From positions 22,430 through 76,915 of the forward strand of contig CAYIDD010000003.1 in assembly GCA_964362175.1 (NCBI GenBank): a stretch of DNA of 54,486 bases, written 5' to 3'. Position numbers and translations under genes: made by a program. The stretch is from an uncultured Candidatus Saccharibacteria bacterium. GTDB lineage: Bacteria > Patescibacteriota > Minisyncoccia > Phycocordibacterales > UBA2100. The notes beneath the pieces were generated by a model. It was not told where the DNA came from and ran no database searches. It saw only the letters and a list, made by a program, of their open reading frames with translations. Below, in pieces: positions 38 through 27,567 of the stretch; positions within the stretch are counted from its first letter, which is position 1; every line of letters starts with the position of its first letter.

Positions 38-772
38 GTGTGGGCGGCGCGGGCGCGCGCGCGCGCGGCAAACCCGCACTTCGGCGAAACAATTTTGGAA
101 ATTGGACCCGGTAAGGGAGCACTCACGAGAGAATTACTTGCAACAGGAGCACGTGTCGTTGCTGTGGAGAAAGACCCGATGTTGGTGCAACAACTCCATG
201 ATCAATTTACGAAATCAATCATCAAGAAAAGGCTTACTGTTGTTGAGGCTGACATCCGTGACTTCGATGCAATGAGGTCAGACCTCATTGCAGGAGAGTA
301 TGTAGTCGCGGCGAACATCCCGTACTACATCACCGGCGAGATCATCCGGCAATTTCTGACATCTGACATTCAGCCGCGCGCGATGGCGCTCCTTGTGCAA
401 AAAGAGGTTGCGGAGCGCATCATCGCGCGTGACCACAAGGAAAGTATCCTGTCCCTCTCGGTCAAAGCATACGGAACGCCGAAAATAGTCGCAAAAGTTT
501 CAAAAGGTAATTTCTCCCCGCCGCCCTCGGTCGACTCCGCAATACTTCTCATCGAAAACATCTCGAGAAACTTCTTCGAAGATATTGGCGAGAAAAGATT
601 CTTTGACGTTGTCCACGCGGGCTTCGCATCAAAGAGAAAGCAGCTATCGGGAAATCTGAAGAAACGATTTGGTACTTCGTCTGAACGAGCCGTCGCAGAC
701 CTTCCGGAAAAGGTTCGTGCAGAAGATGTAGATCTCGCTGGCTGGAAGAAACTCGTCCAACAACTACCTTGA
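38..772 (+). CDS. rsmA: 16S rRNA adenine dimethyltransferase RsmA/KsgA, 5'-truncated or mis-started at the contig edge
   Basis: SAM motif ILEIGPGKGALT, VAVEKD and catalytic ANIPYYIT are present. The usual N-terminal ~30 aa are replaced by poly-G/(GC)n sequence at nt 1-75. Confidence 0.8.
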   Translation: MWAARARARAANPHFGETILEIGPGKGALTRELLATGARVVAVEKDPMLVQQLHDQFTKSIIKKRLTVVEADIRDFDAMRSDLIAGEYVVAANIPYYITGEIIRQFLTSDIQPRAMALLVQKEVAERIIARDHKESILSLSVKAYGTPKIVAKVSKGNFSPPPSVDSAILLIENISRNFFEDIGEKRFFDVVHAGFASKRKQLSGNLKKRFGTSSERAVADLPEKVRAEDVDLAGWKKLVQQLP

Positions 773-1087
773 ACTCCCCATCATGGTTATATAGGTCCCC
801 GGCCAAACGATGACCGGTTGGATGGAGATGATGCAGTAGTAGGGCACGCTCGCGAGTCCCAAGAGCCACTGGCCCGCATGCGAGGGAGGGCCGAATTGAT
901 ACGTCTTTGTGCCGGTCGTCCAGATATATGGACCGCCGCGTGGAGGACCGAGATTCGCGTAAATCGCTTGGTTGTAACAAGGCTTCACAATATTTGCCTG
1001 ACCGCCGAAAGGGAACGCGTGCGCGAAAAAGGGGAACGAGGCAAGAAGGATGGTCGCCGTCGTAAAGGAAACGGATGTCCGAAACAT
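764..1087 (-). CDS. small secreted protein (107 aa) with a cleavable signal peptide
   Basis: ATG at 1087 gives MFRTSVSFTTATILLASFPFFAHA|FPFGGQ... The mature part carries FGG..PC..GPPRGG..W.LG..C..GSS and two Cys. Composition is protein-like, unlike the Arg-rich plus-strand reading of the same DNA. Confidence 0.55.
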   Translation of the reverse strand: MFRTSVSFTTATILLASFPFFAHAFPFGGQANIVKPCYNQAIYANLGPPRGGPYIWTTGTKTYQFGPPSHAGQWLLGLASVPYYCIISIQPVIVWPGTYITMMGSSR

Positions 1088-1270
1088 GCATACATCGTAG
1101 CACGGGGATGTAGACGCAACTTTTCGTCCCCACAAGGACTGCGATCTGTTGCCGCGCTGCGCGCGGACAAATCGGGAGCCCCACAGGGACTGCTGTTTGT
1201 AACCAATCGCTTTGCTCTTGGACAAACAGGGAGCTTGATACTTCAAGTGGTATACGGGATACTTACTCGA

Positions 1271-2158
1271 ATGGAATGGATCCGTGCCCACCCTTACGCG
1301 TATGCGCTGTGCGCAGCGGGCGTTCTCCTTGTCGGCGGGATCTTCATCGTACAAAAGCAAGGGTCAGCGACGGTGAGCGACAAAGCAGGGGCGTGGGATG
1401 GCGCCAATCTGGGCGTTTTGAATCCAACGTCGTACGGACCCACAGAGAACACGGGAACATCGAAAGAGGTGAACATCATGCAGCAGGTGCAAAACTCCGC
1501 GCCCTACACCTACATCCCTCCCGCGGTCGTTGGCGACTCAGAGGGAGGCGGGGGAAGCGGCTCGTTTGATCTGAACAGTTTCATTGCGATGCTTGGGCAG
1601 GGCTCGACCCCCCAAGTGGATCCGACCCAAGATGCATCCGCTCCAGACGCGTACTCACTCATACCGACCGGGCTCATGAGCACGACAACAGCGCAAAATT
1701 CCCGCACCACAACCCAACAAACGCTCTATGATTTCGGCAACGACATCGGCTCATACATTCAATCATTCGAGGAACAGCACCCGACAATGTCCTTTACACT
1801 GAAGGATCATGCCGAAGATCGCAACGACCCACAGAAAGCGGCGGCTGTCGGGCGCGTGGCGCAGGAGCTCAAGGGAGTGGGGCAGAGCCTCTTGAGCATA
1901 GAGACGGTCCCGTCGGGAATTGCGCCTGCGCACACAGCGCTCGCAAAAAGCTATGTCGCGGTTGGGACCAACCTCGCCCTCCTCGCAGAAGCGAAAGATG
2001 ATGCTGATTTTCTCCATGCAATAGAGGTTTACAATGCATCGGCCGATACATTCGTGAAAAATTACGTCGCCATCGCAACACTTTTCGGCGCGTACGGCGT
2101 CGTCTTCAGCCCCACCGACGCCGGAAGCGTTTTCACATTCACGCCCGCAAGCCTCTAG
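1271..2158 (+). CDS. membrane-anchored hypothetical protein, paralogue of the next gene
   Basis: An internal ATG at 1271 precedes one TM helix (YALCAAGVLLVGGIFIV). The C-terminal helical region (VP..H.AL...YN..AD) resembles the 2208-3032 product. The upstream 151 codons of ORF 818-2158 look non-coding. Confidence 0.55.
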   Translation: MEWIRAHPYAYALCAAGVLLVGGIFIVQKQGSATVSDKAGAWDGANLGVLNPTSYGPTENTGTSKEVNIMQQVQNSAPYTYIPPAVVGDSEGGGGSGSFDLNSFIAMLGQGSTPQVDPTQDASAPDAYSLIPTGLMSTTTAQNSRTTTQQTLYDFGNDIGSYIQSFEEQHPTMSFTLKDHAEDRNDPQKAAAVGRVAQELKGVGQSLLSIETVPSGIAPAHTALAKSYVAVGTNLALLAEAKDDADFLHAIEVYNASADTFVKNYVAIATLFGAYGVVFSPTDAGSVFTFTPASL

Positions 2159-2207
2159 CTTCGATTTCCCCTAAAAGCGCGGATATGCGCGTCCGGAGTC
2201 TTCTCTG

Positions 2208-3032
2208 GTGCGCTATACTTATTGCGTGGAAAACGAACGCTCGCACACAAGCGGCTTTTCGGCTATTGGGATCACTGCCGCCATCTCTGTGTTTGTGCTT
2301 GTCGCAGCCTTCGGTTGGGAGATCAGACAAACTATGCAAGGTACGGACACCCCGACTCCATACGCGGAAAGCGAGCCGGAGAAAAATCCTGCGATCACGG
2401 ATACAGCAACGATTCCTGCGATGGGAGACACGGAGGCGATCGCGCCATCGCCCGACGGTTTTTCATCCCTCGGCATTGCGGTCGTTGATGAACTTATTAC
2501 AAAATACGCTTCGCTTCAGGATCAGGGTCTGTACACCGAAGAGATCGGCCAGAAGGTCGCGGAAAAAATGGCGGCGACTCTCAAGCCGGCTGTTTCATAC
2601 GATCCACACGCTGTGACGGACATTCTCACGGACACCGATACTTCCTATGATCGGATGTTGCAGTATCGCTCCGATCTTCGTGGCTCGCTCGCCCCGCTTT
2701 TGAAAAATACGCAACCTGAATTCGAGATCTTCGCATACTACGTGGACACAAAAGATGAGAAATATTTGACGCTCCTCAAGGAGGTCGCGCAAAACTACCG
2801 CGACGCCGCGAGCAGAACGGCCCGCGTCATCGTGCCGCACGACGCCGTGAGGGAACACGTTGCGATATTGAACGCCATGGAACAATTCGCGGCAATGCTT
2901 GATGCAATGGTCGCGAACGCCGCCGATCCGTTCGCTTCCGTCGCACTCCTGCGTACCTACAATCAGGCTGAAGCAGACATGTTGCTCTCATTCAAAGCGC
3001 TCACGGTCTACTACAAACAAAAATCGGTATGA
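2208..3032 (+). CDS. membrane-anchored hypothetical protein
   Basis: GTG start and one N-terminal TM helix (FSAIGITAAISVFVLVAAFGW). The stop overlaps the next start (ATGA at 3029). Confidence 0.6.
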   Translation: MRYTYCVENERSHTSGFSAIGITAAISVFVLVAAFGWEIRQTMQGTDTPTPYAESEPEKNPAITDTATIPAMGDTEAIAPSPDGFSSLGIAVVDELITKYASLQDQGLYTEEIGQKVAEKMAATLKPAVSYDPHAVTDILTDTDTSYDRMLQYRSDLRGSLAPLLKNTQPEFEIFAYYVDTKDEKYLTLLKEVAQNYRDAASRTARVIVPHDAVREHVAILNAMEQFAAMLDAMVANAADPFASVALLRTYNQAEADMLLSFKALTVYYKQKSV

Positions 3033-4984
3033 AGACCGGACGATACCTTGCAGGATCGGGAGCACTTATTGCGCTTGGCGTGGTCCCGCTTCTCGCATTC
3101 GCTCAACCGGTAGACACATCGCCACCGACCGTTCCAACAAATCTCAATCCGGTAAGCGTATCTTCTTCGGCCATCGACCTTTCGTGGGGCGCCTCTACCG
3201 ACAATATCGGCGTGCAAGGCTATAAGGTGTACCGATCCGATGTGCAGATCGCCACGACGACGAGTGCTGCGTATCAGGATACCGGCCTTGCCGCTGCAAC
3301 AAATTACATATACAACGTCGCGGCCTTTGATGCCGCGGGAAATACATCTGCAAAATCTTTACCCTCTTCCACAGCTACCCAATCCGGCACAGGTACGGGA
3401 GGGGGTACCGGTGGTGTTGTACCTGCCCCTGCTCCTACACCCGCGCCCGGTGCGGCAGCGGCGCCCTACGATTTCAAGCGGCAGGGGATTTTCGACTGCA
3501 ACCAGAATGGTGCATACGCGATGAGTGTCGGTGCGCTCTCGGCAACGGGCGGCGTGTACGTCCCTGTCGCCGACAACACGGTCGAGCTCAACACCGGTAC
3601 GCTTGTCTATAAAGAGTGCGTCTTGCGTGAGGTGATAAACCGAGAGAGGGAGGCGGCAATGGCCGCGTACGGAAAAAGAGCGGTCGTCGCCATACAGACC
3701 GGCCGCAATGGCAATCCACAATATGTTGTCGATCAGAACCAGGAGTTGCTCGCATACGGGAGCGATCCGACTATGCTCGACTTTCTCCAAGATGGCACGT
3801 TGCAAAATCTCAATCCGGCATTTCAGTCACAGGTAACGCGGGCTACGGCTCTCGGCTATGAAACGCGGACGCGCGCGAAAGAGAGTGTTCTCCGATGCCC
3901 CTACAAGGGTGATCTGAAGACGGCGCTGACCGATCCTACGCGATCATTCAGCTGGGAGGAATTCCGTGCGCTCTCCGACCCCGCGTGTAACCCGCTCGGC
4001 GCATACTATCTTGCAAGAGACTTAGCTGACGCCCGCATCGCCCGATGCCAAGAATACTTGCAACAACAATGGGATTGGGGCCGTGGTTACTACGCCGCTT
4101 CTACCGATCCCAACAATCCCTGCCGCGGAAAGATCGTCACGCCCGCGGTGACCATGCAGGCATCGTTCCAAAACATTATCGACAGCCCCGTCCGTCAGCT
4201 TGAGAGCGCCAACGACATCGGCCAGATGATCAACGCGCTTTATGCCGGCATGACAACACAGATCATTTCCGACAACCAAGGTCTTGCAGGACTCATGCAA
4301 AGCACAGGTGGACGAGCTTCATACCTCGATCAGGTCGCATCAGAGTCCGCTTCGGGTCTGCGCAACGCAGCGCTCAATGTCGCGATCCAGGTCCTCACCG
4401 CGGCGCGGCAGGTGGAAGCTGCATATTTCCAAGCAGCCAACGCGATCGGCGCGACGCTCACACAAACGATGGCGCAGTTGCGCAGCGCAGAGAATCAGTG
4501 TTGGAAACTTATCATTCCGAAAGTGTGCACGAGCGAATTGAGTGCGCAGAATGAATGCACGGACGGTGATGGAAACACGTACAAGGTATCCACCTCGACC
4601 GCCGGATTCGCAGAAGCAGTCATAACCGCCCAGATCACACCGCTCGCTGCTCCCGCAAGCAATAACATCCGCGTATCGCAAAACGCGCTCCGGCTCATTG
4701 ATCAGTTGATCGTGGGCGTTACCAACACCGCTTCACTCGATGCGCAGCGCCTCGCACTCCAACAGCTCGATTCACTCGTCGCACAGAAACTTCTGCATGT
4801 AAAACCCGATGTCGATGGCACGAACGGCATCGTGAAGCAGCTCGACAACGTGCAAACGACAATGACAACGCTCGTCACGAACACCGTGAAGGCGTGGGCA
4901 GATGACCCAAGTCCCTCCACCGGTTGGTGCAACGTCAATAATCCCGCGGTAGTGCAGGGATGGAAGGATAGGTGGAAGAAATAA
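3029..4984 (+). CDS. secreted protein with an N-terminal fibronectin type III domain
   Basis: Signal peptide ends ...LLAFAQP. An FN3-like segment follows (PPTVPTNL..SSSAIDLSWGASTDNIGVQGYKVYR...NYIYNVAAFDAAGNTS), then a G/T/P/A linker and a ~480-aa domain of unknown function. Confidence 0.7.
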   Translation: MKTGRYLAGSGALIALGVVPLLAFAQPVDTSPPTVPTNLNPVSVSSSAIDLSWGASTDNIGVQGYKVYRSDVQIATTTSAAYQDTGLAAATNYIYNVAAFDAAGNTSAKSLPSSTATQSGTGTGGGTGGVVPAPAPTPAPGAAAAPYDFKRQGIFDCNQNGAYAMSVGALSATGGVYVPVADNTVELNTGTLVYKECVLREVINREREAAMAAYGKRAVVAIQTGRNGNPQYVVDQNQELLAYGSDPTMLDFLQDGTLQNLNPAFQSQVTRATALGYETRTRAKESVLRCPYKGDLKTALTDPTRSFSWEEFRALSDPACNPLGAYYLARDLADARIARCQEYLQQQWDWGRGYYAASTDPNNPCRGKIVTPAVTMQASFQNIIDSPVRQLESANDIGQMINALYAGMTTQIISDNQGLAGLMQSTGGRASYLDQVASESASGLRNAALNVAIQVLTAARQVEAAYFQAANAIGATLTQTMAQLRSAENQCWKLIIPKVCTSELSAQNECTDGDGNTYKVSTSTAGFAEAVITAQITPLAAPASNNIRVSQNALRLIDQLIVGVTNTASLDAQRLALQQLDSLVAQKLLHVKPDVDGTNGIVKQLDNVQTTMTTLVTNTVKAWADDPSPSTGWCNVNNPAVVQGWKDRWKK

Positions 4985-4986
4985 AT

Positions 4987-7509
4987 ATGCCGGAAAAAAA
5001 AGACTTCTTAGTGTTCGTAGAAACCAGGGCTGGTCTGCTCCTAGGGGCACTCGCGGTTTTCTCGGTACTGTTTTTTGCTTCTCCGGGCGTTGTACATGCC
5101 GCCGCAGCGAGACCTTCTAGCGTAAGCGTTCAATGTTATACCAATTACACGTCGGGGTCTTTGGAGGGCTGTACTCCGGCAGAGATTGCAGCGGCAGATG
5201 CGGCAAACGGTGTTGCGCCCCAAAATGATGCGGCGAATAGCCAAGGTCAAGCAGCTCAACTCATGAATCAGGGTGCCAATGCAGCCAACACCGCTGTACC
5301 ATACCAGCCTTCGGCAGCTGGCACAGCCGACTGCACACCGGCCTGGAGAAATATATCAGCCATTTTTAGCCCCAGATGCTGGATGCGAATGCTCGGGGCG
5401 CTTGTCACGAGCGTCTTCATCTGGATAGGGGTCATGACCCTCGAGATCGCTGGGCTTTTATTCAATTATCTGCTCGATTTTACGGTCATCAAATTCAGTA
5501 CCGCCATATACACGAATATAAAGGACGCGGTCGAGATCGGCTGGACCGTATTCCGAGATCTTGCAAACATCCTCATTATCGGGATATTCACCTTTATCGC
5601 AATTGGTACGATTTTGGGGCTAGAAAATTACAACGCAAAGAAGATGGTCGCGAAAGTTCTGATTATTGCGGTACTGATCAACTTCAGCCTCCTTTTTACC
5701 AAAATGATTATCGACGCATCAAACTTCACCGCTTCTCAGTTCTACTACGCGGCCCTCGGCCAGGTAGCAAGATCGTCTGCGCAGGGCACGAGCGTCAACG
5801 TGGCCCCGACTGGCGGGAGTATGCAGCAAGCAAGCGCTGGTACCAAAGGCATATCGGGCCAGTTCATGCAGGCAATCGGCATTACGGGATTTGGAGATTC
5901 TTATAATCAAATACGCGCGCGGCAAGAGAAGAGCGATAACGGACTTGTGGGAATCGGTTTCGGACTTCTCTCGCTCATATATCTCCTTGGTATGGCCATA
6001 GTATTTTTCTATGGCTGCTTCCTTCTTATTTCGCGGGCCATACTGCTCATATTCCTCATGATCACATCGTCCATCGCATTTGCCTCGTACCTCATTCCCC
6101 AGTGGGAAACGAGTAGCTATGGGTGGAAGACGTGGAAGGATTCGCTCGTAAAGAGCGCCGTGTTCGCCCCACTCCTCATGCTTTTCATCTGGGTAACTCT
6201 CCTGCTCGCGCAAGGACTTACGAAAATAACCAGTGGCTCAACGATCGGTGGAATAGTAGAGGCGCCAGCGGAGAGTATTCCCGCCGCTTTCGGCTACTTC
6301 ATGATTCTCGGTATGATTTTTCTCTCCTTCAGGCTCTCTTCAAGCTTTGCGAGCAAGATCGCCGGGTTCAGCATGGCTTCAATCGCTCCCGCGCTCGGAC
6401 TTGCCGCTGGGGCACGTGTAGCGGGACTCTTGGGTCGCTATGGTCTCGGGATCCCCGGCGGCATGGCCGCTCGCCGCCTAACTGCACTTGGTAAAGATCA
6501 AGAGGGAAGAGGTAATGTCCTCACTGGGAAGGGAATCCAGCGTTTCGCCAACCGTCTCCAGAGTGCCACTGAAAAACGCGATTTCAATCTTATGAATACG
6601 AGCCTCGGTAAGCAGATCACTGCCACGGCAGGACTCAAAGGCAAGTGGACAGGTGCGACAAAATTCGGCGGTATAGAGGGCGTGACGAAAAAACAAGCTG
6701 AGGGGTACGCAAAAGACGCTGAAAAAATGACGTTCACTCACGAGGAGAAAAGTAAAATGTTTGAAGAAGCTGCAAAAAATGTCGCTTCGAGACCAGAAAA
6801 TAAGGAGGATGCGCAGCGTCTAAAGGACATGCATGAAACCGCAAAGAAAACGCTGGAGCAAAGCGAGAGAGAGGCGAAGGAAAATAAGGAGCGGCACAAG
6901 GAATCCCTCAAACAAGCGAAGGAGCACCACGACGCCACCGAGAGAGACGCCCAGAGTCAGATCAAGTCTATCGAGAAGAGTTCGCAAGATACAATTTCTC
7001 GACTCGAGCGTGATAAAGAATACACGCCGGAGGGGTCTACCGCTCGCGAGGAGTTTGAAAAACAGATCGTCGCAGCTCGCGCGGATTCCGCCAGTAAAAT
7101 GAACGCCGAAAAGAACCGCATCGAAACTGCGCGTGCAGAAGTTACGCGGCTAAACAAGTTGATCGAGACCGAGGATCCGCAGGTGGTCGCAGCGAGGAAA
7201 AAACTTTCGGAGGCGGAAAAAGAAAAAGAGGAGTTTGGTAAGAAAATAAAAGAAATGGCCGAGACAGAGGTGAGATTGAAGTATCCAAACTTGGATAAAA
7301 CAACCGAGGAGATCGCTGGAAAGTTGGCGAACACGCGTGCAACAAATCTATTCGGAGCCCTTCAGAGCGAGGCAAACGACCACTTGGCAAAACTCACGAG
7401 AGATAAAGTAAAAGTTACCAAGGAAGACAAGCGACTCAAGAGGGTTCTTGAGAACTCATTGAAAGATGGCTCTGAGGAAGAAAAGCCGAAGGCCGAGGAA
7501 ACGCACTAA
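4987..7509 (+). CDS. polytopic membrane protein, VirB6/TrbL-like, with a ~330-aa charged coiled-coil tail
   Basis: It has an N-terminal signal/anchor, at least 6 predicted TM helices (aa ~130-480), and a K/E-rich heptad-like C-terminus. It sits in a VirB3/VirB4 cluster. An alternative start lies at 4972. Confidence 0.55.
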   Translation: MPEKKDFLVFVETRAGLLLGALAVFSVLFFASPGVVHAAAARPSSVSVQCYTNYTSGSLEGCTPAEIAAADAANGVAPQNDAANSQGQAAQLMNQGANAANTAVPYQPSAAGTADCTPAWRNISAIFSPRCWMRMLGALVTSVFIWIGVMTLEIAGLLFNYLLDFTVIKFSTAIYTNIKDAVEIGWTVFRDLANILIIGIFTFIAIGTILGLENYNAKKMVAKVLIIAVLINFSLLFTKMIIDASNFTASQFYYAALGQVARSSAQGTSVNVAPTGGSMQQASAGTKGISGQFMQAIGITGFGDSYNQIRARQEKSDNGLVGIGFGLLSLIYLLGMAIVFFYGCFLLISRAILLIFLMITSSIAFASYLIPQWETSSYGWKTWKDSLVKSAVFAPLLMLFIWVTLLLAQGLTKITSGSTIGGIVEAPAESIPAAFGYFMILGMIFLSFRLSSSFASKIAGFSMASIAPALGLAAGARVAGLLGRYGLGIPGGMAARRLTALGKDQEGRGNVLTGKGIQRFANRLQSATEKRDFNLMNTSLGKQITATAGLKGKWTGATKFGGIEGVTKKQAEGYAKDAEKMTFTHEEKSKMFEEAAKNVASRPENKEDAQRLKDMHETAKKTLEQSEREAKENKERHKESLKQAKEHHDATERDAQSQIKSIEKSSQDTISRLERDKEYTPEGSTAREEFEKQIVAARADSASKMNAEKNRIETARAEVTRLNKLIETEDPQVVAARKKLSEAEKEKEEFGKKIKEMAETEVRLKYPNLDKTTEEIAGKLANTRATNLFGALQSEANDHLAKLTRDKVKVTKEDKRLKRVLENSLKDGSEEEKPKAEETH

Positions 7510-7522
7510 CCACCCACTATTT

Positions 7523-8083
7523 ATGATCGCAACCAACATTGATAATGGACTCGACCAGGCCCTAAAAGAGCGGTTCGCAAAATTGCCGAAGGTGGTACAG
7601 GATGCGATTATGTCGGCAGATGTGGAGAAGCACATGCGCGAACTCGCCGAGACGCATAAACTACACCTCGATCAGTGGCAAACACTCGAAAACGAAGTCA
7701 TGCTGGCACTTCTCGGCGTCCAGAAAGCGGAAGATTTGGAGAAAAACATCAAGAGCGAGGTCGGCGTGCCTAATGACATTGCGAAAGCACTCACCGAAAA
7801 CATCTCGAAAATCGTCTTCGAGCCGATTCGCGCGGAGCTGGAGCGGGAGCTGGAGCATCCCGAGGCAAAGGCAGCTGAGGTGAGCGGGGTGGAGGCGGCG
7901 CGTGCGCAAGTCCTCGGGGAGAACGCTCCTGCTACCCCCGCAGTTGCGCCAGCAACACCTCCTGCGGAACCGCCAACACAGAAAGTCGAGCGCGCGCCCG
8001 TCTCGACCGCCTACAAGGGCGGCGAAACCTCCGCCGTGCGCGTCGCAGTCGCAGACGACCCGTACAGAGAGCCTCCGGCATGA
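7523..8083 (+). CDS. hypothetical soluble protein with an A/P-rich tail
   Basis: The ATG at 7523 follows the previous stop. The product has helical composition and no recognisable motif. Confidence 0.5.
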   Translation: MIATNIDNGLDQALKERFAKLPKVVQDAIMSADVEKHMRELAETHKLHLDQWQTLENEVMLALLGVQKAEDLEKNIKSEVGVPNDIAKALTENISKIVFEPIRAELERELEHPEAKAAEVSGVEAARAQVLGENAPATPAVAPATPPAEPPTQKVERAPVSTAYKGGETSAVRVAVADDPYREPPA

Positions 8084-8128
8084 ACAGTGACGGTGTGTGG
8101 CCCGGCGCACTGATATAATGATGGGGCT

Positions 8129-8650
8129 ATGCAATTTCAGGTTCCGCAGTTCATTGAGGTCGAAGACAAGATCTTCGGCCCCCTCACATTCAAGCAATTC
8201 GTCTATATCGGTGGGGGCTTGGGCGCGTGCTACATCATGTGGCGCGTGTTGCCCATCTACCTTGCAGGCCCGCTCGTGGCCATAATCGGAGGTCTCACCG
8301 CTGGCTTGGCATTTTTCCAGCTCAACGGCCGCCCCTTCATCATCGGACTCGAGAACGGTTTCTTTTTTCTTCTCCGCAGCAAACTCTATCTGTGGAACAA
8401 TGCGCGGAAAAAGAACGTCACGCCACCAGTCATCGGAAAGGCGGTTGCCGGAGCGGCGCAAATATATGTGCCGAAACTCTCGGAGGGAAAGTTGCATGAA
8501 TTATCCTGGAGCCTGGACATAAAAGAGCGTGTCGCGCAGGGGATCGCCAGTGACGATGATCGGCGCCTGATGCGAACTCCGCAAGACCTTGTGGCGCCCA
8601 TTCGTACGCCGCAACAGGAACTGGCGCGACTCACCGGAGAAAACTCCTAA
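8129..8650 (+). CDS. PrgI-family / VirB3-like small membrane protein
   Basis: The N-terminus MQFQVPQFIEVEDKIFGPLTFKQFVYIGGG followed by two TM helices is the typical PrgI-family signature. A TATAAT-like hexamer lies at 8113-8118. Confidence 0.7.
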   Translation: MQFQVPQFIEVEDKIFGPLTFKQFVYIGGGLGACYIMWRVLPIYLAGPLVAIIGGLTAGLAFFQLNGRPFIIGLENGFFFLLRSKLYLWNNARKKNVTPPVIGKAVAGAAQIYVPKLSEGKLHELSWSLDIKERVAQGIASDDDRRLMRTPQDLVAPIRTPQQELARLTGENS

Positions 8651-8659
8651 CGTAATCGT

Positions 8660-9328
8660 ATGCCGACAAAAGAGAAAGATACGAGTCCCCGCGCGAGCGC
8701 CCGATCCACACAGGAGTTCCTCCCGATATCCGAGGTGCGTGACGGCGTTATCGTGCTTAAGGACGGCGGACTGCGCGCCATTCTGCTCGCATCCTCGCTC
8801 AACTTCGCACTGAAATCAGAGGATGAGCAGACGGCGTTCATCGTCCAGTTCCAGAATTTTCTCAACTCGCTCGACTTTTCCTGCCAGATATTCGTGCAAT
8901 CGCGCATGCTCGACATCCGCCCGTACATCGCAACGCTTGAAGTGGCGTATAAGGAACAGCTCGACGATCTCATGCGCATCCAGATCCGCGAATACATTCA
9001 GTTCATCAAGAGTTTCACTGAGGCCGCAAACATCATGACCAAAAATTTCTTCGTCGTCGTGCCGTACTCCCCCTCGGTCGGGATGACTGGCAAGGGGATA
9101 TCGTCGCTCCTGCCGTTCGGCAAGAAACAGACCACGACAGAAGAATCGAATAGAACGTTCGCGGAACAGGTATCCCAGCTTGAGCAGCGTGTTGCGATCG
9201 TACAGCAGGGTCTGGTGCGCACTGGCGTGCGCACTGTACAACTCGGGACCGAAGAAGCGATCGAGCTCATGTACAAGATGTTCAACCCCGGCGAAGAAGG
9301 GAAGCCGATGCCGGTCGAGCAGAAATAA
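8660..9328 (+). CDS. T4SS-associated protein resembling the N-terminal domain of Gram-positive VirB4-type ATPases
   Basis: FLPISEVRDGVIVLKDGGLRAILLASSLNFALKSEDEQ... resembles the start of Tn916 Orf16 / TcpF-type ATPases (recalled from memory). No Walker motifs are present. It lies directly upstream of virB4. Confidence 0.5.
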   Translation: MPTKEKDTSPRASARSTQEFLPISEVRDGVIVLKDGGLRAILLASSLNFALKSEDEQTAFIVQFQNFLNSLDFSCQIFVQSRMLDIRPYIATLEVAYKEQLDDLMRIQIREYIQFIKSFTEAANIMTKNFFVVVPYSPSVGMTGKGISSLLPFGKKQTTTEESNRTFAEQVSQLEQRVAIVQQGLVRTGVRTVQLGTEEAIELMYKMFNPGEEGKPMPVEQK

Positions 9329-9333
9329 AACGT

Positions 9334-11271
9334 ATGGCGCTCCTTGACCTGTTCAGAACGAAGAAGCCCGACGAGAGCCCGAACGTGCTGCCCGTGCTGC
9401 CCGAGGAGATCTATAAAGCGGGCACGTTGGACTTGCAGGACGTCATCGCGCCGCACGCGCTCCGCATTTCCCCGCGCGAACTCGACCTTGGGGAGAAGAT
9501 TGCACGTACCTTTTTCGTGATCTCGTATCCGCGGTTCCTCACAACGGGGTGGTTTGCGCCGATCATCAACATGGACAAGGTCATCGATATCTCGATCTTT
9601 GTCCACCCGATGGACACCAACGAGATGCTCAGAAAATTCCAGAAGAAAGTCGCCGAGGTCCAGAGCCAGATATCGACACGCGAGGGGAAGGGGATGGTGC
9701 GCGACCCGATGCTCGACACCGCATATGCCGACCTTGAACAACTGCGTGATTCGTTGCAACAGGCGCAGGAGCGCATCTTCGAGGTGGGGCTCTACCTCAC
9801 AATCTACGGCGGCACGCGCGAGGAGATAGACAAAGTGGAGACCGAGGTACGCTCTATCCTTGAGTCGAGACTCGTTTACATCAGGCCGGCGCTCTTCCAG
9901 CAGGAACAGGGGTTCCGTTCCGTCCTGCCGCTCGCTACCGACGAGATCAACGTGCACACGAAGCTCAACTCCGCCCCCCTCTCCTCCATCTTCCCCTTCA
10001 TTTCGTTCGACCTCACGTCGGACAAGGGGATTCTCTACGGTATCAACCGCCACAATTCATCCCTCATCCTTTTCGATCGTTTCTCGCTTGAGAACTACAA
10101 TTCGGTGACGTTCGCAAAATCCGGCGCCGGCAAATCCTATACAACAAAACTCGAGATATTACGGAGCCTCATGTTCGATACCGAGGTCATCGTCATCGAC
10201 CCCGAACGCGAATATGAATACCTCGCGACCACCGTGGGCGGGCGCTACTTCAACATTTCGCTTTCTTCCGAGCACCACATCAATCCCTTCGATCTTCCCA
10301 TTCCGCGCGAAGATGAGAACCCGTCCGATATATTGCGCAGCAACATCATCACGCTCGTCGGACTCTTCCGCATCATGCTCGGCGGTCTCACGCCGGAAGA
10401 GGATGCGGTCATTGATCGCGCCATCACCGAAACGTACGCCCTGAAAGACATCACCGCGGACGCGAATTTCGCGCAGGTGGAACCTCCACTTCTCTCCGAC
10501 TTCGAGCTCGTACTCTCGGGCATGGAAGGTTCCGAGTCCCTCGTGGCGCGATTGAGCAAGTACACCAAAGGCACGTGGTCGGGATTTATGAACAGACCCA
10601 CCAACGTGGATATGAACAAAAAACTCGTCGTCTTTTCCGTACGCGACATGGAAGACGACCTCAAGCCCGTCGCCATGTACATCATCACGCACCACATCTG
10701 GAATACGGTGCGCAAAGAGCTTCGCAAACGCCTCCTCATCATCGACGAGGCGTGGTGGATGATGAAATCGCAGGACACGGCGTCATTCCTCTTCGGCATC
10801 GCAAAGCGCGGTCGTAAATACTACCTCGGGCTCTCGACCATCACGCAGGACGTCAACGACTTCCTCACCTCGCCCTACGGGACAGCGATGATTACCAACT
10901 CGTCGATCCAACTTCTCCTCCGGCAATCGCCCACATCGGTCGACCTCGTACAACAGACGTTCAAACTTTCCGACGAAGAGAAATATCTTCTGCTTGAATC
11001 AGATGTGGGTGAGGGTATTTTCTTCGCGGGTCTCAAACACGTCGCCATCAAGGTCATCGCGTCGTACACAGAAGATCAGATCATCACTTCGGACCCATCA
11101 CAGATATTGGCGATCAAGAAAGCGAAACAAGAGCTTGAAGCGTCCCGTGATGCCGGACCAAACGCCGCATCAGCGAACGCGGCAAATACCGCATCAGAGG
11201 CCGCACATATCCAATCGGCTCCCGTAAATTTCACTACCACACAGGCGGAGAACGTGGTTCCTAAACAATGA
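9334..11271 (+). CDS. virB4: type IV secretion ATPase VirB4/TrbE family
   Basis: Walker A KSGAGKSYTTK and Walker B RLLIIDEAWWM are present. Size (645 aa) and overall layout fit VirB4. Confidence 0.9.
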   Translation: MALLDLFRTKKPDESPNVLPVLPEEIYKAGTLDLQDVIAPHALRISPRELDLGEKIARTFFVISYPRFLTTGWFAPIINMDKVIDISIFVHPMDTNEMLRKFQKKVAEVQSQISTREGKGMVRDPMLDTAYADLEQLRDSLQQAQERIFEVGLYLTIYGGTREEIDKVETEVRSILESRLVYIRPALFQQEQGFRSVLPLATDEINVHTKLNSAPLSSIFPFISFDLTSDKGILYGINRHNSSLILFDRFSLENYNSVTFAKSGAGKSYTTKLEILRSLMFDTEVIVIDPEREYEYLATTVGGRYFNISLSSEHHINPFDLPIPREDENPSDILRSNIITLVGLFRIMLGGLTPEEDAVIDRAITETYALKDITADANFAQVEPPLLSDFELVLSGMEGSESLVARLSKYTKGTWSGFMNRPTNVDMNKKLVVFSVRDMEDDLKPVAMYIITHHIWNTVRKELRKRLLIIDEAWWMMKSQDTASFLFGIAKRGRKYYLGLSTITQDVNDFLTSPYGTAMITNSSIQLLLRQSPTSVDLVQQTFKLSDEEKYLLLESDVGEGIFFAGLKHVAIKVIASYTEDQIITSDPSQILAIKKAKQELEASRDAGPNAASANAANTASEAAHIQSAPVNFTTTQAENVVPKQ

Positions 11272-12338
11272 ATACTTCAAGAACGGACACAATGAAAGCC
11301 TGTATGGTGCGCGGTGCGTTCACCTTCATCGCGGTCTCTATCGTTCTCCTCACCGTAAGTCCCGCACACGCACAACTTGGTCTACCTTCAATAGAAAAGG
11401 CGGTCTCCATAAAATTCGAACCTCTGCACCCCGGGCCGGGAGATACGGTCCGTCTGGACGCTCACAGCGCAGTACTCGATCTTTCCACCAGCGAAATAGC
11501 CTGGCGCGCGAACGGGAAAACCATCGCGCAAGGAGTGGGGGTTGAGCGCGTCGAGGTCAACGCGGGTAGCCTCGGAAAGGAAACGGTCATTGATGTTTTT
11601 GTGCTCACCTCCGGTGGAGTAGCCGCGTCCGCAGAAGCGGCCATCATTCCGACCGAACTTGACCTCTTGATCGACGCCGATTCATATGTTCCGCCATTCT
11701 ATTTGGGGAGACCTCACGTTTCCGCCGGCAGCACCCTGCTCTTGCAGGCAGTTCCTCATTTCAAACGACCAGACGGGACGATGACAAAAGCGTCCGACGT
11801 GATCTACACGTGGAAGAAAAATGGCGAGGTGCTCGGTAGCATATCGGGGCGCGGAAGATCAAACGCCCGCATTCCGATACAACACCTATACGGTACCGAG
11901 AATATCTCCATTGAGGCACGCACATCGGATAATCTGCTCTCAAACGGATCAAGTCTGTCCATTTCTCCGATCCAACCCGTTCTTGTGCTCTATCAAGACC
12001 ATCCCCTCTACGGTGTTTTGTACCACCAGGCACTCGGCGTCGCTTCGTCTATCGCAGAATCTGAAGCGACGTTCGCTGCCACACCGTACTTCGCCGGAAT
12101 AACGGGGCAGAACGATCCCGCGCTCACCTTTGACTGGAGCGTGAACGGAAAAACGCTTCCCCAGAGTGCGACGAGGCCGGAGGCAATCACCATCAATGCC
12201 GACAATTCGAGCGGCATTGCGGTACTCAGACTCGAGCTCACACACGCGACCAACTTTTACATGGACGCGAAGGGTTTGTGGAACGTTACATTCTCAACAG
12301 CCGCGGTGAACAACCAGCTCGGGGTCTTTGGGCTATAA
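11268..12338 (+). CDS. secreted hypothetical protein
   Basis: The start overlaps the virB4 stop (ATGA). The signal peptide ends ...VSPAHA|QLG and the composition is beta-rich. Confidence 0.65.
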   Translation: MNTSRTDTMKACMVRGAFTFIAVSIVLLTVSPAHAQLGLPSIEKAVSIKFEPLHPGPGDTVRLDAHSAVLDLSTSEIAWRANGKTIAQGVGVERVEVNAGSLGKETVIDVFVLTSGGVAASAEAAIIPTELDLLIDADSYVPPFYLGRPHVSAGSTLLLQAVPHFKRPDGTMTKASDVIYTWKKNGEVLGSISGRGRSNARIPIQHLYGTENISIEARTSDNLLSNGSSLSISPIQPVLVLYQDHPLYGVLYHQALGVASSIAESEATFAATPYFAGITGQNDPALTFDWSVNGKTLPQSATRPEAITINADNSSGIAVLRLELTHATNFYMDAKGLWNVTFSTAAVNNQLGVFGL

Positions 12339-12342
12339 CCAT

Positions 12343-13716
12343 ATGAAGCTACGAACTGTTGCCATGTACGCACTCGTAGGGGTCACGGTCCTGATCCTGG
12401 GGGCACTTGCGGGTTGGTACTTTTTCATCAGTACGCAAACAAAAACAACAGTCGCCGAAGATACCGCGCGTGGGTACATTTCGGCGCCGCTTGCAGGAAA
12501 GGGGAGCGACGCGGGAGGAGCGACGTCTGTAGCCGGAACACTCCCCAAAAGTCCCGCCGCCGGAAAGGGGGTCTTCTCGCGCATATGGGATACCATCACG
12601 CGCCGCGACACCGGCGTGTCCGATCCATCCACATTTGCATCATTCAACCAAGATCAAGCGGGGTTTACCACCGATGCCTCACAGGCCACCGACCTGCCGG
12701 CGAAACTTTCGGGTGAGCGCCCGCCGCGGCTGTGGCACGTCGAGAAGAAGCCAGTTGCAGGCATGGCGTTCGTAAAAAACGGTTCGAGCGAGTACCTGCG
12801 ATACGTTGAGCGCGGGAGCGGCAATGTGTTCGAGGCCGACCCCAAGACAGGCGACACGACACGACTCACTAATACATTGATATCCCGCGTCTACGAGGCC
12901 ACCGTGACGGGAAGCGGTCGGGTCATCGGACGCTCAATTGATGAGATAGGTGTTGTAACGACATTTATCGGGTCCGTTGCGACGAGCTCCGAAGCCACCT
13001 CATCGGCACGAAGTCTTTTGACCGCGGATCTCCCGAAAAACATCGCGTACATCGTAGCGGACCCAAAAACAGACGCGCTCTTTTATCTCACCAGCGAAGC
13101 AGGTACTGCGGTGGGAATTCGCTCGGAGTGGAATGGGGCGAAGCCAAAGCGTATGTTCGGGTCTCCGATCATGCATTGGCGTCCCTGGTGGCTTGCCGAT
13201 GGTCGCATTGTGCTGGTGCAGGCGGCTGCCGACAGCGTGCCGGGCTACGCGTACGAACTTACGGGTGATGGATCGCTCGTCCCGCTTCTGCGCGCGATCC
13301 CGGGCCTCACGCTTCTGCCGCGCGCATCGGGTGCTATGCTCTACGGGCGCTCGGACAGCGGTACCCTGGCGCTCTTCGCGCAAATAAATGCGACCACGAC
13401 GGCAACAAGACTGCCGATAAAAACCATCGCCGATAAATGCGCGTGGAGTACGGGGAGGGACCCTGTTGCATATTGCGGAGTACCGCAGGGATTCGCCGCC
13501 CAAAACTTCCTCGACGATTGGTACCGCGGAATGGTCCACTCATCAGATGCCATCTGGCTCGTAGATGCGCGTGCGGGCAGCGCCGAGGTTCTCTATACCC
13601 CCGACTCCAGTTTGTCCCTTGATATTGCGCGGCCTGCCGTTGACAGCACGGGAGGATACATCGCATTTATAAACGCTGCCGACCAATCGCTCTGGATACT
13701 GCGTACAAAAGATTAA
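12343..13716 (+). CDS. membrane-anchored hypothetical protein, possibly beta-propeller-like
   Basis: ATG at 12343 (the ORF-track start at 12328 is TTG). One N-terminal TM helix is followed by a repetitive beta-rich C-terminal region. Confidence 0.6.
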   Translation: MKLRTVAMYALVGVTVLILGALAGWYFFISTQTKTTVAEDTARGYISAPLAGKGSDAGGATSVAGTLPKSPAAGKGVFSRIWDTITRRDTGVSDPSTFASFNQDQAGFTTDASQATDLPAKLSGERPPRLWHVEKKPVAGMAFVKNGSSEYLRYVERGSGNVFEADPKTGDTTRLTNTLISRVYEATVTGSGRVIGRSIDEIGVVTTFIGSVATSSEATSSARSLLTADLPKNIAYIVADPKTDALFYLTSEAGTAVGIRSEWNGAKPKRMFGSPIMHWRPWWLADGRIVLVQAAADSVPGYAYELTGDGSLVPLLRAIPGLTLLPRASGAMLYGRSDSGTLALFAQINATTTATRLPIKTIADKCAWSTGRDPVAYCGVPQGFAAQNFLDDWYRGMVHSSDAIWLVDARAGSAEVLYTPDSSLSLDIARPAVDSTGGYIAFINAADQSLWILRTKD

Positions 13717-13718
13717 TT

Positions 13719-14147
13719 ATGAGTGAGAGAATAAAATTATTCGTACGTTCGGCACTGATCTTGTGTACGCTTTCGCTCGTGTTGTTTTTTGCGATACTTG
13801 ATGTTGCTACCGCACAGGAATTCGTTCCGCTTGCAGAAACCCCCTCGGGATCGAAGCTCGGCCAGTTGTATAGCTCGGGAAGCATTTCCGATTTTATCAA
13901 CGGCCTCTTTAAATTCGCGATCACCATCGGTGCCGTCGCCGCCGTCCTGCGTATTGCCTATGCCGGCTACCTCTACATGGGACAGGCGGATATGTGGAGC
14001 AGCAAAGGGAAAGCAAAAGGGATCATCGCCGATGTGACGCTGGGGCTCCTCCTTCTCTTGGCGATCTACCTCATCCTCAACCAGATCAATCCGGCCATCC
14101 TAGAGTTGGACACGCTCAAAAACATCGCGCCGCCTTCGGGAAGTTGA
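13719..14147 (+). CDS. VirB2/TrbC-like T4SS pilin candidate
   Basis: 142 aa with a long signal/anchor ending ...VATAQE and two hydrophobic helices separated by a short charged loop (MGQADMWSSKGKAKG). It is the last gene of the VirB4 cluster. Confidence 0.55.
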   Translation: MSERIKLFVRSALILCTLSLVLFFAILDVATAQEFVPLAETPSGSKLGQLYSSGSISDFINGLFKFAITIGAVAAVLRIAYAGYLYMGQADMWSSKGKAKGIIADVTLGLLLLLAIYLILNQINPAILELDTLKNIAPPSGS

Positions 14148-14181: not shown

Positions 14182-14649
14182 TCATGCGGCGTATTTGATG
14201 ACGACTCTTCGATTTCTTCCCTCACCCTGCGATTCCGTCTTCACATTCGGCGCGTCCTGCAGCGTCGTATGGATGATGAGACGTTCGTACGCGCTCATGG
14301 GAGAAAGTTCGACATCGTACTGGAACGAGCGCGCGCGCTCCGCCATCATGAGGGCTTTTGCTTCCAGGTCCTTGATCTGTTTTGCGCGATAGTCGTTCAC
14401 GTCGACCAGAAACATCGGCACGCGTTCGTTGTCACCCTCTTTCGGGGGAGGGAGATTTTTTTCGTATATCTTTTTTACCAAGGTATCAAGGGCGTGGATA
14501 GTGTCGCCATGCATGCCGATGAGCGTGCGCGCGTCGTCAGTGCGGATCGAATATATTTCCTGGCCCGCGATCGACGTGTGTTCGATACCGGAGTAGGGAA
14601 CACCGAGTTTTGAAAGAATTTCTTTGAGGATATTTTCAACGGATTCCAT
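14182..14649 (-). CDS. jag: Jag/SpoIIIJ-associated RNA-binding protein (KH + R3H)
   Basis: It lies downstream of yidC. An R3H-like C-terminus is present (MSAYERLIIHTTL...GEGRNRRVVI). ATG at 14649; the ORF-track start at 14685 is TTG. Confidence 0.8.
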   Translation of the reverse strand: MESVENILKEILSKLGVPYSGIEHTSIAGQEIYSIRTDDARTLIGMHGDTIHALDTLVKKIYEKNLPPPKEGDNERVPMFLVDVNDYRAKQIKDLEAKALMMAERARSFQYDVELSPMSAYERLIIHTTLQDAPNVKTESQGEGRNRRVVIKYAA

Positions 14650-14697
14650 GCGGGGCACTATACCCCGCAGTACAAATCTCAGCAAACATTTGCTGCG

Positions 14698-15420
14698 TTA
14701 CCCCCTCCACCGCCGGCCCGCCGCAAATTCCTGACCTATCATAAAGAGATTACTCGTTATCCAATAGAGGGGGGCTGCAGCCGTGATCGTGTATCCGATC
14801 ACCCCGATCAGGATGGGAAGAACGTAGCGTGCCTGGAGATCAAAGCTCCTCGCCATATCGCTGGATAATGTTGCCTCCGTCGGGGTCTGCGAGCCGCGCG
14901 GTCCCATAGAGAGCCTGCTATATACCATCTGGGTTATCGCGGCAAGAACTGCGATGAGGAGGCTTCGTTGCCCCATATCAATGGCTCCGAGGAATTCCAT
15001 GTTTATCGCCGTGGGCATATGAACGAACGAATACAGAAGTGTCGGGTCCACCTGCGGAAGTCCACCCGCATAAAAGACCCAGTAGAGCCCGATCAGGACG
15101 GGAAATTGGATGAGTATGAGCCCAAAGCTCGCAAAGGGATGCACGTCGCGCTCGCGGTACAGCGCAAAGATAGCGCGACCCTGTTCTTCGCGGTTGTCCT
15201 TGTATTTTTCTTTGATCTTTTCGACTTCCGGAGTGATTTTTTTCATTGCCATCTGCGTCTGAATGGCCCGCTTCGATAGCGGGTAGATAATGATGCGTGC
15301 AACGATGGTAAGCGCGATCACGGCAAGCCCCATGTCATGCGAGGGGATAGCGCCGACGAGATAGACAAGCCCGTTGTAAAGGGGATCGTAGACGATCGTG
15401 TGAAATAGGTACGAAATCAT
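14698..15420 (-). CDS. yidC: membrane protein insertase YidC/Oxa1 (short form)
   Basis: A 5-TM short YidC layout with PLY.GL..L at the N-terminus, in conserved rnpA-yidC-jag synteny. Confidence 0.9.
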   Translation of the reverse strand: MISYLFHTIVYDPLYNGLVYLVGAIPSHDMGLAVIALTIVARIIIYPLSKRAIQTQMAMKKITPEVEKIKEKYKDNREEQGRAIFALYRERDVHPFASFGLILIQFPVLIGLYWVFYAGGLPQVDPTLLYSFVHMPTAINMEFLGAIDMGQRSLLIAVLAAITQMVYSRLSMGPRGSQTPTEATLSSDMARSFDLQARYVLPILIGVIGYTITAAAPLYWITSNLFMIGQEFAAGRRWRG

Positions 15421-15449: not shown

Positions 15450-15791
15450 TTACGCTAATACACCGGCGCGCGCGAGAAGCCCGTCGATATCTTTCCGGAT
15501 TTCTGGAAACGATGCCTTTGTCGCTTCACGTTTGGCGTGAAAGACGAGAGCAGTCGGCCTCCGTATGCGCGCCATGTGGGACCGGAGGCTCTCCCGACAG
15601 TAACGCTCTATTTTGTTGCGATCGACTGCGCGCGCAGCGACCTTTTTGGAGACAACCGACGCCATTTTCGGTCCGCTGCTCGAGGGAAGTGTGGTTATCG
15701 TGAGGAAAAAATAGGCTCCGTGGACCCGACGCGACTTCGCGCGGGAGAGACGGACAAAATCGGCGTGCGAAAGCCGGTATTTTTTTGGCAT
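15450..15791 (-). CDS. rnpA: ribonuclease P protein component
   Basis: A basic 113-aa protein (MPKKYRLSHADF..) placed between rpmH and yidC. Confidence 0.85.
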   Translation of the reverse strand: MPKKYRLSHADFVRLSRAKSRRVHGAYFFLTITTLPSSSGPKMASVVSKKVAARAVDRNKIERYCRESLRSHMARIRRPTALVFHAKREATKASFPEIRKDIDGLLARAGVLA

Positions 15792-15896: not shown

Positions 15897-16031
15897 CTAA
15901 ACCGAGAGCTTCGCTCGGCCCTTTCTGCGTCGGCGGCGCAGAACGTTGCGACCTGAAGTGCTTGCACTTCGCGCACGGAACCCGTGCGTCTTCACGCGCT
16001 TACGCTTCTTTGGCTGCCATGTTCGTTTCAT
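15897..16031 (-). CDS. rpmH: 50S ribosomal protein L34
   Basis: Hand translation of the minus strand gives [44 protein letters not shown] (44 aa). It is absent from the ORF track, which lists no ORF shorter than 60 aa. Confidence 0.92.
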
Positions 16032-23560: not shown

Positions 23561-24007
23561 CTAACGGTCGGAAGCTGCGCGTCGAACAAGAAATTTTCTG
23601 ATAAAAGATCGAATTCGTCGGATTTCTTTCCGGTTATTTTCCGGAGGACTTTTAGCGACTTCATTTGCAAATAGGTACAGGTCATCGTTGTCTACGGCGA
23701 TCCACCATCCGTTTCTATAAAGAAAGTAAAGAAGGGTCATCACAGCAACGCGCTTGTTGCCGTTTTGGAATGGATGGTTCTTTATCATGAGGTAAAAGAG
23801 AATCGCTCCCTTGCCCACGTGCCCACGGTATAGACTTTTCCCACTAAATTTTTGAAAAGGAGTTTTTAAACAACTTTCCAATCGGTCTGGAAAGCGTGTA
23901 TTGAAGGCTGGTATCGGTTCGCCCCACTCCATCAGCTCCTGAGCAAGGGCGTGAGCAACGGTTTCGATTTGGCGTACCGATATTTCCACCAGGGTAGACC
24001 GAGCCAT
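23561..24007 (-). CDS. doc: Doc (death-on-curing) Fic-fold toxin
   Basis: Doc-type Fic motif HPFQNGNKRVAV. Confidence 0.85.
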   Translation of the reverse strand: MARSTLVEISVRQIETVAHALAQELMEWGEPIPAFNTRFPDRLESCLKTPFQKFSGKSLYRGHVGKGAILFYLMIKNHPFQNGNKRVAVMTLLYFLYRNGWWIAVDNDDLYLFANEVAKSPPENNRKEIRRIRSFIRKFLVRRAASDR

Positions 24008-27453: not shown

Positions 27454-27567
27454 TGCCCCCCATTGTAGCGCATTAAAAATGGGGGGCGGGGGCCGGAGCA
27501 CCCTCTCCGCTCTCGCCTCGTTTCGGTGCCGCAAGCGGAGTCAAACCCGCGCGTGTACAATGTCGGC

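Follow-up and report, generated by a model that had tools for sequence, protein, structure and literature searches.

A chromosomal type IV secretion gene cluster without DNA-transfer genes near the replication origin of a Kaiserbacteria-like bacterium

What does a type IV secretion system (T4SS) do on a chromosome that carries no DNA-transfer genes beside it? This question is raised by a block of genes at positions 764–14147 of a 54,486 nt stretch of DNA (positions 22,430 to 76,915 of contig CAYIDD010000003.1, assembly GCA_964362175.1; in the following called the window), recorded as belonging to an uncultured Candidatus Saccharibacteria bacterium. Patescibacteria, or the candidate phyla radiation (CPR), account for a considerable part of bacterial diversity and live at the expense of other cells. 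We find that the block is a real T4SS gene cluster without DNA-transfer genes. It lies close to the origin of replication in a Kaiserbacteria-like CPR bacterium from groundwater (Hainich well H43, assembly ERZ1292629). The explanation we prefer, with a probability of roughly 0.8, is that of a chromosomal, vertically inherited T4SS of the Patescibacteria clade, in a Paceibacteria (Kaiserbacteria-like) form that derives from conjugation machinery of the monoderm MPF_FATA type and has lost the DNA-processing parts.

The gene block and its recognisable core

The block consists of 11 open reading frames (ORFs) on the forward strand (g1–g11) and one gene on the reverse strand (g0):

764–1087 (−): g0, secreted protein of 107 amino acids between ksgA and g1, taken from the source-contig gene calls
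1271–2158 (+): g1, bitopic protein of 295 amino acids with an N-terminal transmembrane (TM) segment (residues 9–27), paralog of g2
2208–3032 (+): g2, bitopic protein of 274 amino acids with a GTG start; its stop overlaps the start of g3 (ATGA)
3029–4984 (+): g3, secreted protein of 651 amino acids with signal peptide, FN3 domain (residues 36–115), linker and core
4987–7509 (+): g4, probable extended VirB6-like polytopic membrane protein of 840 amino acids, from TM segments, orthologs and an AlphaFold2 (AF2) model
7523–8083 (+): g5, soluble protein of 186 amino acids with helical N-domain, Pro/Ala-rich linker and C-terminal DPYRE
8129–8650 (+): g6, PrgI/VirB3-family protein of 173 amino acids (PF12666) with a TM hairpin
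8660–9328 (+): g7, TrsD-like protein of 222 amino acids, VirB4 N-terminal domain as a separate gene
9334–11271 (+): g8, VirB4 ATPase of 645 amino acids, middle and C-terminal ATPase domains (NCBIfam, Pfam)
11268–12338 (+): g9, secreted or anchored protein of 356 amino acids with three Ig-like beta-sandwich repeats
12364–13716 (+): g10, TolB-like beta-propeller of 450 amino acids with an N-terminal TM anchor; alternative TTG start at 12328
13719–14147 (+): g11, VirB2-type T4SS pilin of 142 amino acids, from PF18895 matches in orthologs and topology

The spacing within g1–g11 ranges from −4 to 49 nt. An initial annotation of this DNA had already noted the ATGA stop/start overlaps at 3029 and 11268, which the ORF coordinates place between g2 and g3 and between g8 and g9; all other gaps measure 2–49 nt. 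The ORF positions given there agree with ours, and the gene calls of the public source contig match the block coordinates and add the 107-amino-acid ORF at 764–1087 (−). The description as twelve co-directional genes has to be amended: eleven are co-directional, the twelfth being this reverse-strand ORF, and g1 begins at 1271, not near 764 or 818.

A scan of one genome per species yielded 576 loci with a VirB4 relative. The synteny and conservation counts given below use the 80 best matches, and the presence of single genes was determined by profile search, with the loci that have enough flanking sequence as denominator.

The VirB4 ATPase g8 scores 361 bits against the CD1110 family in NCBIfam (cut-off 325, E-value 9.5e-108), matches P-loop_TraG (4.4e-24), AAA_10 and DUF87 in Pfam, and has both its Walker A (AKSGAGKS) and Walker B (LLIIDEAW) motifs intact. 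The nearest solved structure is a Gram-positive VirB4 (PDB 4ag5, 2.9e-43), whereas R388 TrwK is matched at only 4.8e-7. Proteins named from Kaiserbacteria and Parcubacteria are 88–94% identical to it.

The preceding gene, g7, matches TrsD in NCBIfam (1.2e-5) and aligns to positions 2–179 of VirB4_CagE and 8–118 of CD1110. The alignment of g8 to the VirB4 models starts at about position 180–280, where the part covered by g7 ends. On the source contig, g7 has a precomputed PF26593 (TraC-like) assignment; a PDB sequence search with it gave no match. It adjoins virB4 in 78 of the 80 loci, with lengths of mostly 209–231 amino acids. By these alignments, VirB4 is split into two genes, g7 for the N-terminal domain and g8 for the ATPase. 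The initial annotation had called VirB4 correctly, and g7, probably one of the three products it had left as unknowns, can now be assigned to the TrsD-like VirB4 N-domain.

Upstream of this pair, g6 lies above the cut-off of the PrgI family PF12666 (34.4 bits against 27, E-value 3.3e-8), in agreement with the PrgI/VirB3-like protein proposed earlier. Its hydrophobic hairpin spans residues 36–63, and the gene was found in 76 of the 80 loci.

The protein g4 starts with a signal or TM segment, followed by a Cys-containing outer loop, about six TM helices between residues 130 and 460, and a Lys/Glu-rich cytoplasmic tail of about 330 amino acids. TrbL/VirB6 is matched in Pfam by 10 of 57 orthologs (best 6e-5). 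When the AF2 model (predicted local distance difference test, pLDDT, 79) was compared with the PDB by Foldseek, R388 TrwI/VirB6 took ranks 1, 2, 3 and 5 with a probability of 0.72–0.96; a PDB sequence search with the g4 profile gave nothing meaningful. The gene is present in 60 of the 62 loci with enough flank. The model and the ortholog matches make g4 a probable but not proven extended VirB6, as the initial annotation had suggested for a VirB6-like protein.

The VirB2-like pilin of that annotation corresponds to g11, which has a signal peptide and two hydrophobic helices separated by a basic loop, with an invariant I-N-P motif. The T4SS_pilin family PF18895 is matched by 17 of 18 orthologs (best 5.9e-10), three of which also match TrbC/VirB2. 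The gene is single copy in the window and was found in 63 of 66 loci. Among the more distant Paceibacteria (loci L021–L080), 43 loci have the pilin gene in the interval from g9 to g10 instead of behind g10, and in many loci the ORF is far longer (200–580 amino acids), with Cys-rich C-terminal extensions.

Chromosomal position, conservation and mobility

The genes on either side of the block, given here as context outside the apparatus, are the following:

38–772 (+): ksgA, flanking the block
14182–14685 (−): jag (Pfam)
14698–15420 (−): yidC (Pfam)
15450–15791 (−): rnpA (Pfam)
15897–16031 (−): rpmH (from its translation)
16333–17697 (+): dnaA (Pfam)
17928–19025 (+): dnaN (Pfam)

The block is therefore situated in the chromosomal core beside jag-yidC-rnpA-rpmH/dnaA, as annotated before, with dnaN following and ksgA on the other flank. 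A synteny comparison across CPR genomes, advised in the initial annotation, was run on the 80 best-matching species representatives from Kaiserbacteria, Nomurabacteria, Campbellbacteria, Taylorbacteria, Adlerbacteria and other Paceibacteria (VirB4 identity 74–94%). The order ksgA-[block]-jag-yidC-rnpA-dnaA-dnaN was held throughout. Several of these loci carry the public label 'Saccharibacteria' (labels as recorded) despite a VirB4 that is 75–94% identical.

VirB4 is the most conserved protein of the region, with a median identity of 77%, compared to 56% for DnaA, 50% for KsgA, 45% for YidC and 41% for DnaN. Its identity exceeded that of DnaA in 58 of 59 loci and that of DnaN, KsgA and YidC in every comparison. 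The gap between VirB4 and DnaA is somewhat inflated, though not wholly explained, by the selection of the loci by VirB4 similarity. A VirB4 more conserved than DnaA fits a housekeeping-grade role, and its slower evolution in the Paceibacteria lineage speaks in favour of a core role in the cell outside Saccharibacteria as well.

Profile searches of the sizeable window ORFs gave no match to a relaxase, a type IV coupling protein (T4CP), VirB11 or VirB7–10; for relaxase families, this covered all scanned window ORFs of at least 130 amino acids and the upstream contig genes. None of these proteins turned up on the source contig over the 7 kb upstream either, a region that encodes a DksA-type zinc-finger protein, a ComM-like ATPase, PurA, a LysM-M23 peptidase, UvrD and ksgA. 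The lack of VirD4/TraG, relaxase, VirB11 and VirB8–10 reported in the initial annotation thus extends to the window and these 7 kb.

Could the block nevertheless be an ordinary integrative conjugative element (ICE) or its decaying remnant? VirB4 of this family is otherwise found on conjugative elements, and tRNA-Lys, 18 kb away, is the site of genes for a serine recombinase, primase and methylase. These belong to an island at 32491–41270 of low GC content (0.48–0.51), for which no att repeat was found:

32525–34153 (−): serine recombinase, overlapping the 3′ end of tRNA-Lys
34231–36159 (−): RepB-primase/AAA_25 protein
37388–37500: LOOT RNA (Rfam, 69.9 bits)
37971–39620: HATPase_c_3 protein
40098–41270 (−): C5 cytosine methylase

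The recombinase at tRNA-Lys is the only one, and the core genes dnaA, dnaN, a penicillin-binding protein gene, ruvC, ruvB, pilB and polA separate the block from this island. At the block flanks we found no integrase, relaxase or T4CP; a relaxase or T4CP together with flanking att sites had been named beforehand as the sign of an ordinary ICE, and in all 80 species the flanks are instead ksgA and jag-yidC. The GC content of the block (0.52–0.57) does not differ from the remaining window, and its ORFs are all intact and strongly conserved. We therefore rejected an ICE or remnant, which we consider very improbable. The same observations, namely synteny in 80 species, GC content, VirB4 conservation and flanks free of relaxase, T4CP and integrase, support the domesticated, non-conjugative apparatus that the initial annotation had envisaged.

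The placement of the origin rests on gene context and GC skew, whose cumulative minimum lies at 16–18 kb of the window, because DnaA boxes are not more frequent than by chance (11 versus 7.1 expected). From 1271 onward, the operon lies entirely on the forward strand and points toward rpmH/dnaA, convergent with jag-yidC-rnpA-rpmH. This orientation is constant in every related locus that includes dnaA. If oriC is located at rpmH/dnaA, the T4SS operon would be oriented head-on to replication.

The 498-nt gap between ksgA and g1 holds the small, conserved g0, which runs opposite to the operon; an Rfam scan of the whole window gave no match within this gap. In a promoter and terminator scan, sites were no commoner than in shuffled sequence.

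Conserved accessory proteins and the proposed machine

The unannotated genes g3, g5, g9, g10 and g1/g2 are conserved as strongly as the recognisable core, and g1, g2, g3, g9, g10 and g11 each have an N-terminal signal or TM segment.

The g1 protein ends in a helical domain of about 140 amino acids. Ortholog profiles of g1 and g2 align over 139 columns (hhalign, 95.9% probability, E-value 6e-9), which identifies the two as distant paralogs; g2 had no match in Pfam, NCBIfam or the PDB. A gene of this type occurs in 51 of 54 loci and is duplicated in 17 of them.

The FN3 surface protein of the initial annotation is g3, whose fn3 match lies above the cut-off (28.8 bits against 25, E-value 1.4e-6). 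Behind it follows a conserved, Cys-containing core of about 500 amino acids with long helices, modelled by AF2 at a pLDDT of 83 with helices of up to 68 residues. The core was detected in 51 of 56 loci, and its family comprises 2347 representative clusters at an E-value of at most 1e-3. No relative was found by PDB sequence search with the g3 profile. Foldseek with the full-length model against PDB and viral structures returned FN3 matches only, which masked the helical core, and one ortholog has a DUF4141 match of 34 residues below the cut-off. FN3 is missing from most of the listed g3 homologs, one of which has cupredoxin domains in its place, and one ortholog ends in F5/8-C and Ig-like domains. 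This domain turnover is the pattern of a surface-binding protein.

The product of g5 has no TM segment and is soluble; the gene was detected in 67 of 69 loci, and the protein had no match in Pfam or the PDB. About 60 orthologs carry an invariant DPYRE motif at a distance of 2–4 residues from the C-terminal end; elsewhere in the examined loci, the motif is almost absent. This architecture resembles a docking tip such as the C-terminal tail of SSB.

Two beta-rich proteins complete the set. Each of the three g9 repeats bears a W-x-x-N-G motif; orthologs have weak BiPBP_C, Ig_3 and PKD matches, and the PDB match is to Hoc Ig-like (6.5e-4). For g10, 4 of 50 orthologs match PD40 and the profile matches 12 TolB chains in the PDB (best 4.3e-4). 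They were found in all 76 and all 66 loci with enough flank, respectively.

Finally, g0 encodes a signal peptide and two Cys in the mature part; searches of Pfam and the PDB gave no match to it. Its amino acid identity across about 17 close loci, 56–92%, exceeds the DNA identity, which is why we regard the ORF as real. In locus L003, g0 and the operon share one strand.

Pilin and FN3/Ig-like surface proteins could also make an adhesion-only pilus, a VirB2 filament for host attachment with no translocation, and the separate type IV pilus genes encoded in the window, for PilB and PilM, can be counted on this side. In Saccharibacteria, type IV pili are known to mediate attachment. The genes in the window encode a PilB-like T2SSE ATPase at 25756–27534 (−) and PilM at 50684–51940 (+). 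The block itself contains no type IV prepilin and no PilB-, PilC- or PilM-type assembly protein; the type IV pilus machine is separate from the T4SS. Since the type IV pilus already serves adhesion and motility, and the VirB4 motor and probable VirB6 channel are far more strongly conserved than an adhesin would be expected to require, we consider a filament for adhesion only to be improbable.

For the preferred Patescibacteria-clade T4SS without DNA-processing parts, homology, topology and co-conservation suggest the following mechanism. The split VirB4 motor (g7 and g8) would dock via PrgI on the extended VirB6 channel and drive pilin extraction and polymerisation, and the pilin would build a tube or stalk across the monoderm wall. 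The anchored or secreted proteins g1/g2, g3, g9 and g10 might form a wall-spanning or host-contact part, in which the anchored Ig-like, propeller and helical FN3 proteins would replace the VirB8 and adhesin parts of Gram-positive systems. Such a machine may mediate a contact-dependent exchange with a host cell that this reduced-genome bacterium needs, with no conjugation. A bolder version, which we think unlikely, is a new T4SS architecture in which g3 with its swappable N-terminal binding domains, g9, g10, g1/g2 and g5 replace the VirB8, adhesin and T4CP functions of an essential feeding pilus importing host macromolecules.

Several observations weigh against the preferred interpretation. The window version of g4 has no Pfam match, and its Foldseek alignments to TrwI are weak (E-value 0.08–0.29, TM-score 0.36–0.42). 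Against PF18895, whose cut-off is 26.6 bits, the window pilin g11 by itself reaches 20.3 bits (5.8e-4). Within the block, we recognised nothing resembling VirB8 or VirB1. A T4CP or relaxase may lie elsewhere in the genome, as the scans covered the window and 7 kb upstream, and in most Patescibacteria genomes VirD4-like genes are located far from virB4 (PMC12102498). None of the RNA-seq runs searched for the locus sequence contains it. The roles proposed for g1–g3, g5, g9 and g10 are suggested by co-conservation, topology and fold class. With regard to VirB1, a LysM-LysM-Peptidase_M23 protein is encoded about 3.5 kb upstream of g1, past UvrD and ksgA (3609–4703 (−) of L081, the source-contig locus), and is a possible stand-in for the wall hydrolase missing from the block.

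Direction of transport and relation to known systems

If the block encodes such a machine, it could work as an uptake conduit like Helicobacter pylori ComB or archaeal Ced, taking up nucleic acids or other macromolecules of the host. This presumes a cell unable to make nucleotides, and it refines the best explanation rather than giving the block a different identity. The lack of an adjacent coupling protein or relaxase is consistent with import, as is a weak and partial similarity of VirB4 to CedB/CedD. In Southlakia epibionticum, competence is dispensable and the T4SS essential, and the T4SS has been named as a candidate route of nucleotide acquisition (PMC11665869); a 2026 preprint reports feeding on host RNA together with a monophyletic VirB4 (bioRxiv 10.64898/2026.06.21.733656). 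However, the CedB match reaches 33 bits compared to a cut-off of 700, and CedD 12 bits compared to 600. With a CedB score so far below the cut-off, VirB4 is not a Ced member. ComB-type VirB7–10 proteins are also missing, and searches of the block revealed neither a nuclease nor a nucleic-acid-binding domain.

The opposite direction would make it an export machine that delivers proteins, such as effectors, lytic factors or pore formers, to the interior or surface of the host cell, comparable to T4SSs that secrete proteins without a T4CP, such as Bordetella Ptl and Brucella VirB. Protein exporters lacking a T4CP exist (PMC12102498), and protein export or an alternative role has been proposed by Wang et al. 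(PMC10633639). The invariant motif at the extreme C-terminus of the soluble g5 could be a secretion or docking signal, but its near-confinement to g5 in the examined loci means that it is not a signal shared by many substrates, and no effector candidate was found. As the sequence does not reveal which way transport runs, we keep import and export as two equally tentative possibilities.

Systems of this kind were already published between 2023 and 2025, including their position, their pilins and the lack of a relaxase; the reading in the initial annotation was correct and is not new. For Patescibacteria, earlier papers had concluded that the T4SS is domesticated and non-conjugative (PMC12102498, PMC10633639, PMC12857230). 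Quinonero-Coronel et al. (2025, Microb Genom) surveyed 3,035 genomes and described a monophyletic Patescibacteria VirB4 clade in MPF_FATA, with TrsD, PrgI, VirB6 and VirB2-like components, nearly no relaxases, and, in Paceibacteria, a location near dnaA, dnaN, rnpA, ksgA and rpmH (PMC12102498). The window block shares with these systems the monoderm-type VirB4, a separate TrsD, PrgI/VirB3, a probable VirB6 and a VirB2-like pilin near virB4, the lack of a nearby relaxase or T4CP, and the same dnaA/dnaN/rnpA/ksgA/rpmH neighbourhood. Nothing essential differs. The survey leaves the other neighbours unannotated, whereas here g3, g5, g9, g10 and g1/g2 are seen to be co-conserved. It also reports VirB1 homologues near virB4 in Paceibacteria (PMC12102498), none of which is recognisable in this block.

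The Patescibacteria T4SS is the first T4SS of any kind shown to be essential for the survival of its bearer, in S. epibionticum (PMC12857230). In strain ML1, the cluster SEML1_0004–0019 is almost wholly essential for epibiotic growth by transposon sequencing (Wang et al. 2023, Cell; PMC10633639). Both clusters have the core order VirB6ext-PrgI-TrsD-like-VirB4 (VirB6ext being probable for g4), PF18895 pilins, an origin-proximal location (by locus tags in S. epibionticum) and neither relaxase nor T4CP. S. epibionticum alone has six pilin genes, two VirB6-like proteins, a lysozyme (0006), a 1113-amino-acid protein (0007), a PEGA Ig-like protein and an NTF2-like (VirB8-like) protein. In contrast, the window block has one pilin, one probable VirB6, the triple Ig-like protein, the TolB-like propeller, the helical FN3 protein and g5, and neither a lysozyme nor an NTF2-like protein was detected in it.

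Looking at the Gram-positive MPF_FATA conjugation systems (pGO1 TrsD/TrsE, pCF10 PrgH/PrgI/PrgJ, CTn2 CD1110), common features are a VirB4 that passes the CD1110-family cut-off, a separate TrsD as in pGO1, PrgI, and the lack of an outer-membrane core complex. Unlike these elements, the block has no relaxase, T4CP, recognisable VirB8-like protein (PrgL/TraM) or PrgB-type adhesin. It has a VirB2-type pilin, which is lacking in Gram-positive systems, and is chromosomally fixed instead of mobile. The R388 Trw system (MPF_T; PDB 7o3v, 8rt9, 8rtd, 7o41) shares the VirB2 pilin, TrwI/VirB6 as the best match of g4, and TrwK, to which the VirB4 ATPase domain aligns. The similarity is distant, as the TM-scores to TrwI indicate; g4 is three times as long as TrwI, with its long cytoplasmic tail, and the block has no VirB5 or VirB7–11.

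A pilus serving as a conduit and nucleotide uptake have been discussed as possible functions in a 2025 FEMS review (PMC12857230) and a 2024 PNAS perspective (PMC11665869). In a cultivated relative, cryo-electron microscopy revealed tubular structures at the parasite-host interface that were proposed to be T4SS pili (bioRxiv 10.64898/2026.06.21.733656).

What the window adds is small: the conserved accessory genes, the g1/g2 paralogy, the DPYRE tip of g5, g0, a VirB4 evolving more slowly than DnaA, and an operon that may run head-on to replication. It provides a clean Paceibacteria example, in which g3, g5, g9, g10 and g1/g2 become named candidates for structural and interaction studies.

Elsewhere in the window, two large ORFs at 45928–48078 (+; 716 amino acids) and 30919–32319 (+; 466 amino acids) had no Pfam match at an E-value of at most 0.001. 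A Fic/DOC-family protein of 148 amino acids (Pfam, 2.1e-9) is encoded at 23561–24007 (−), among ruvC, yebC and ruvB.

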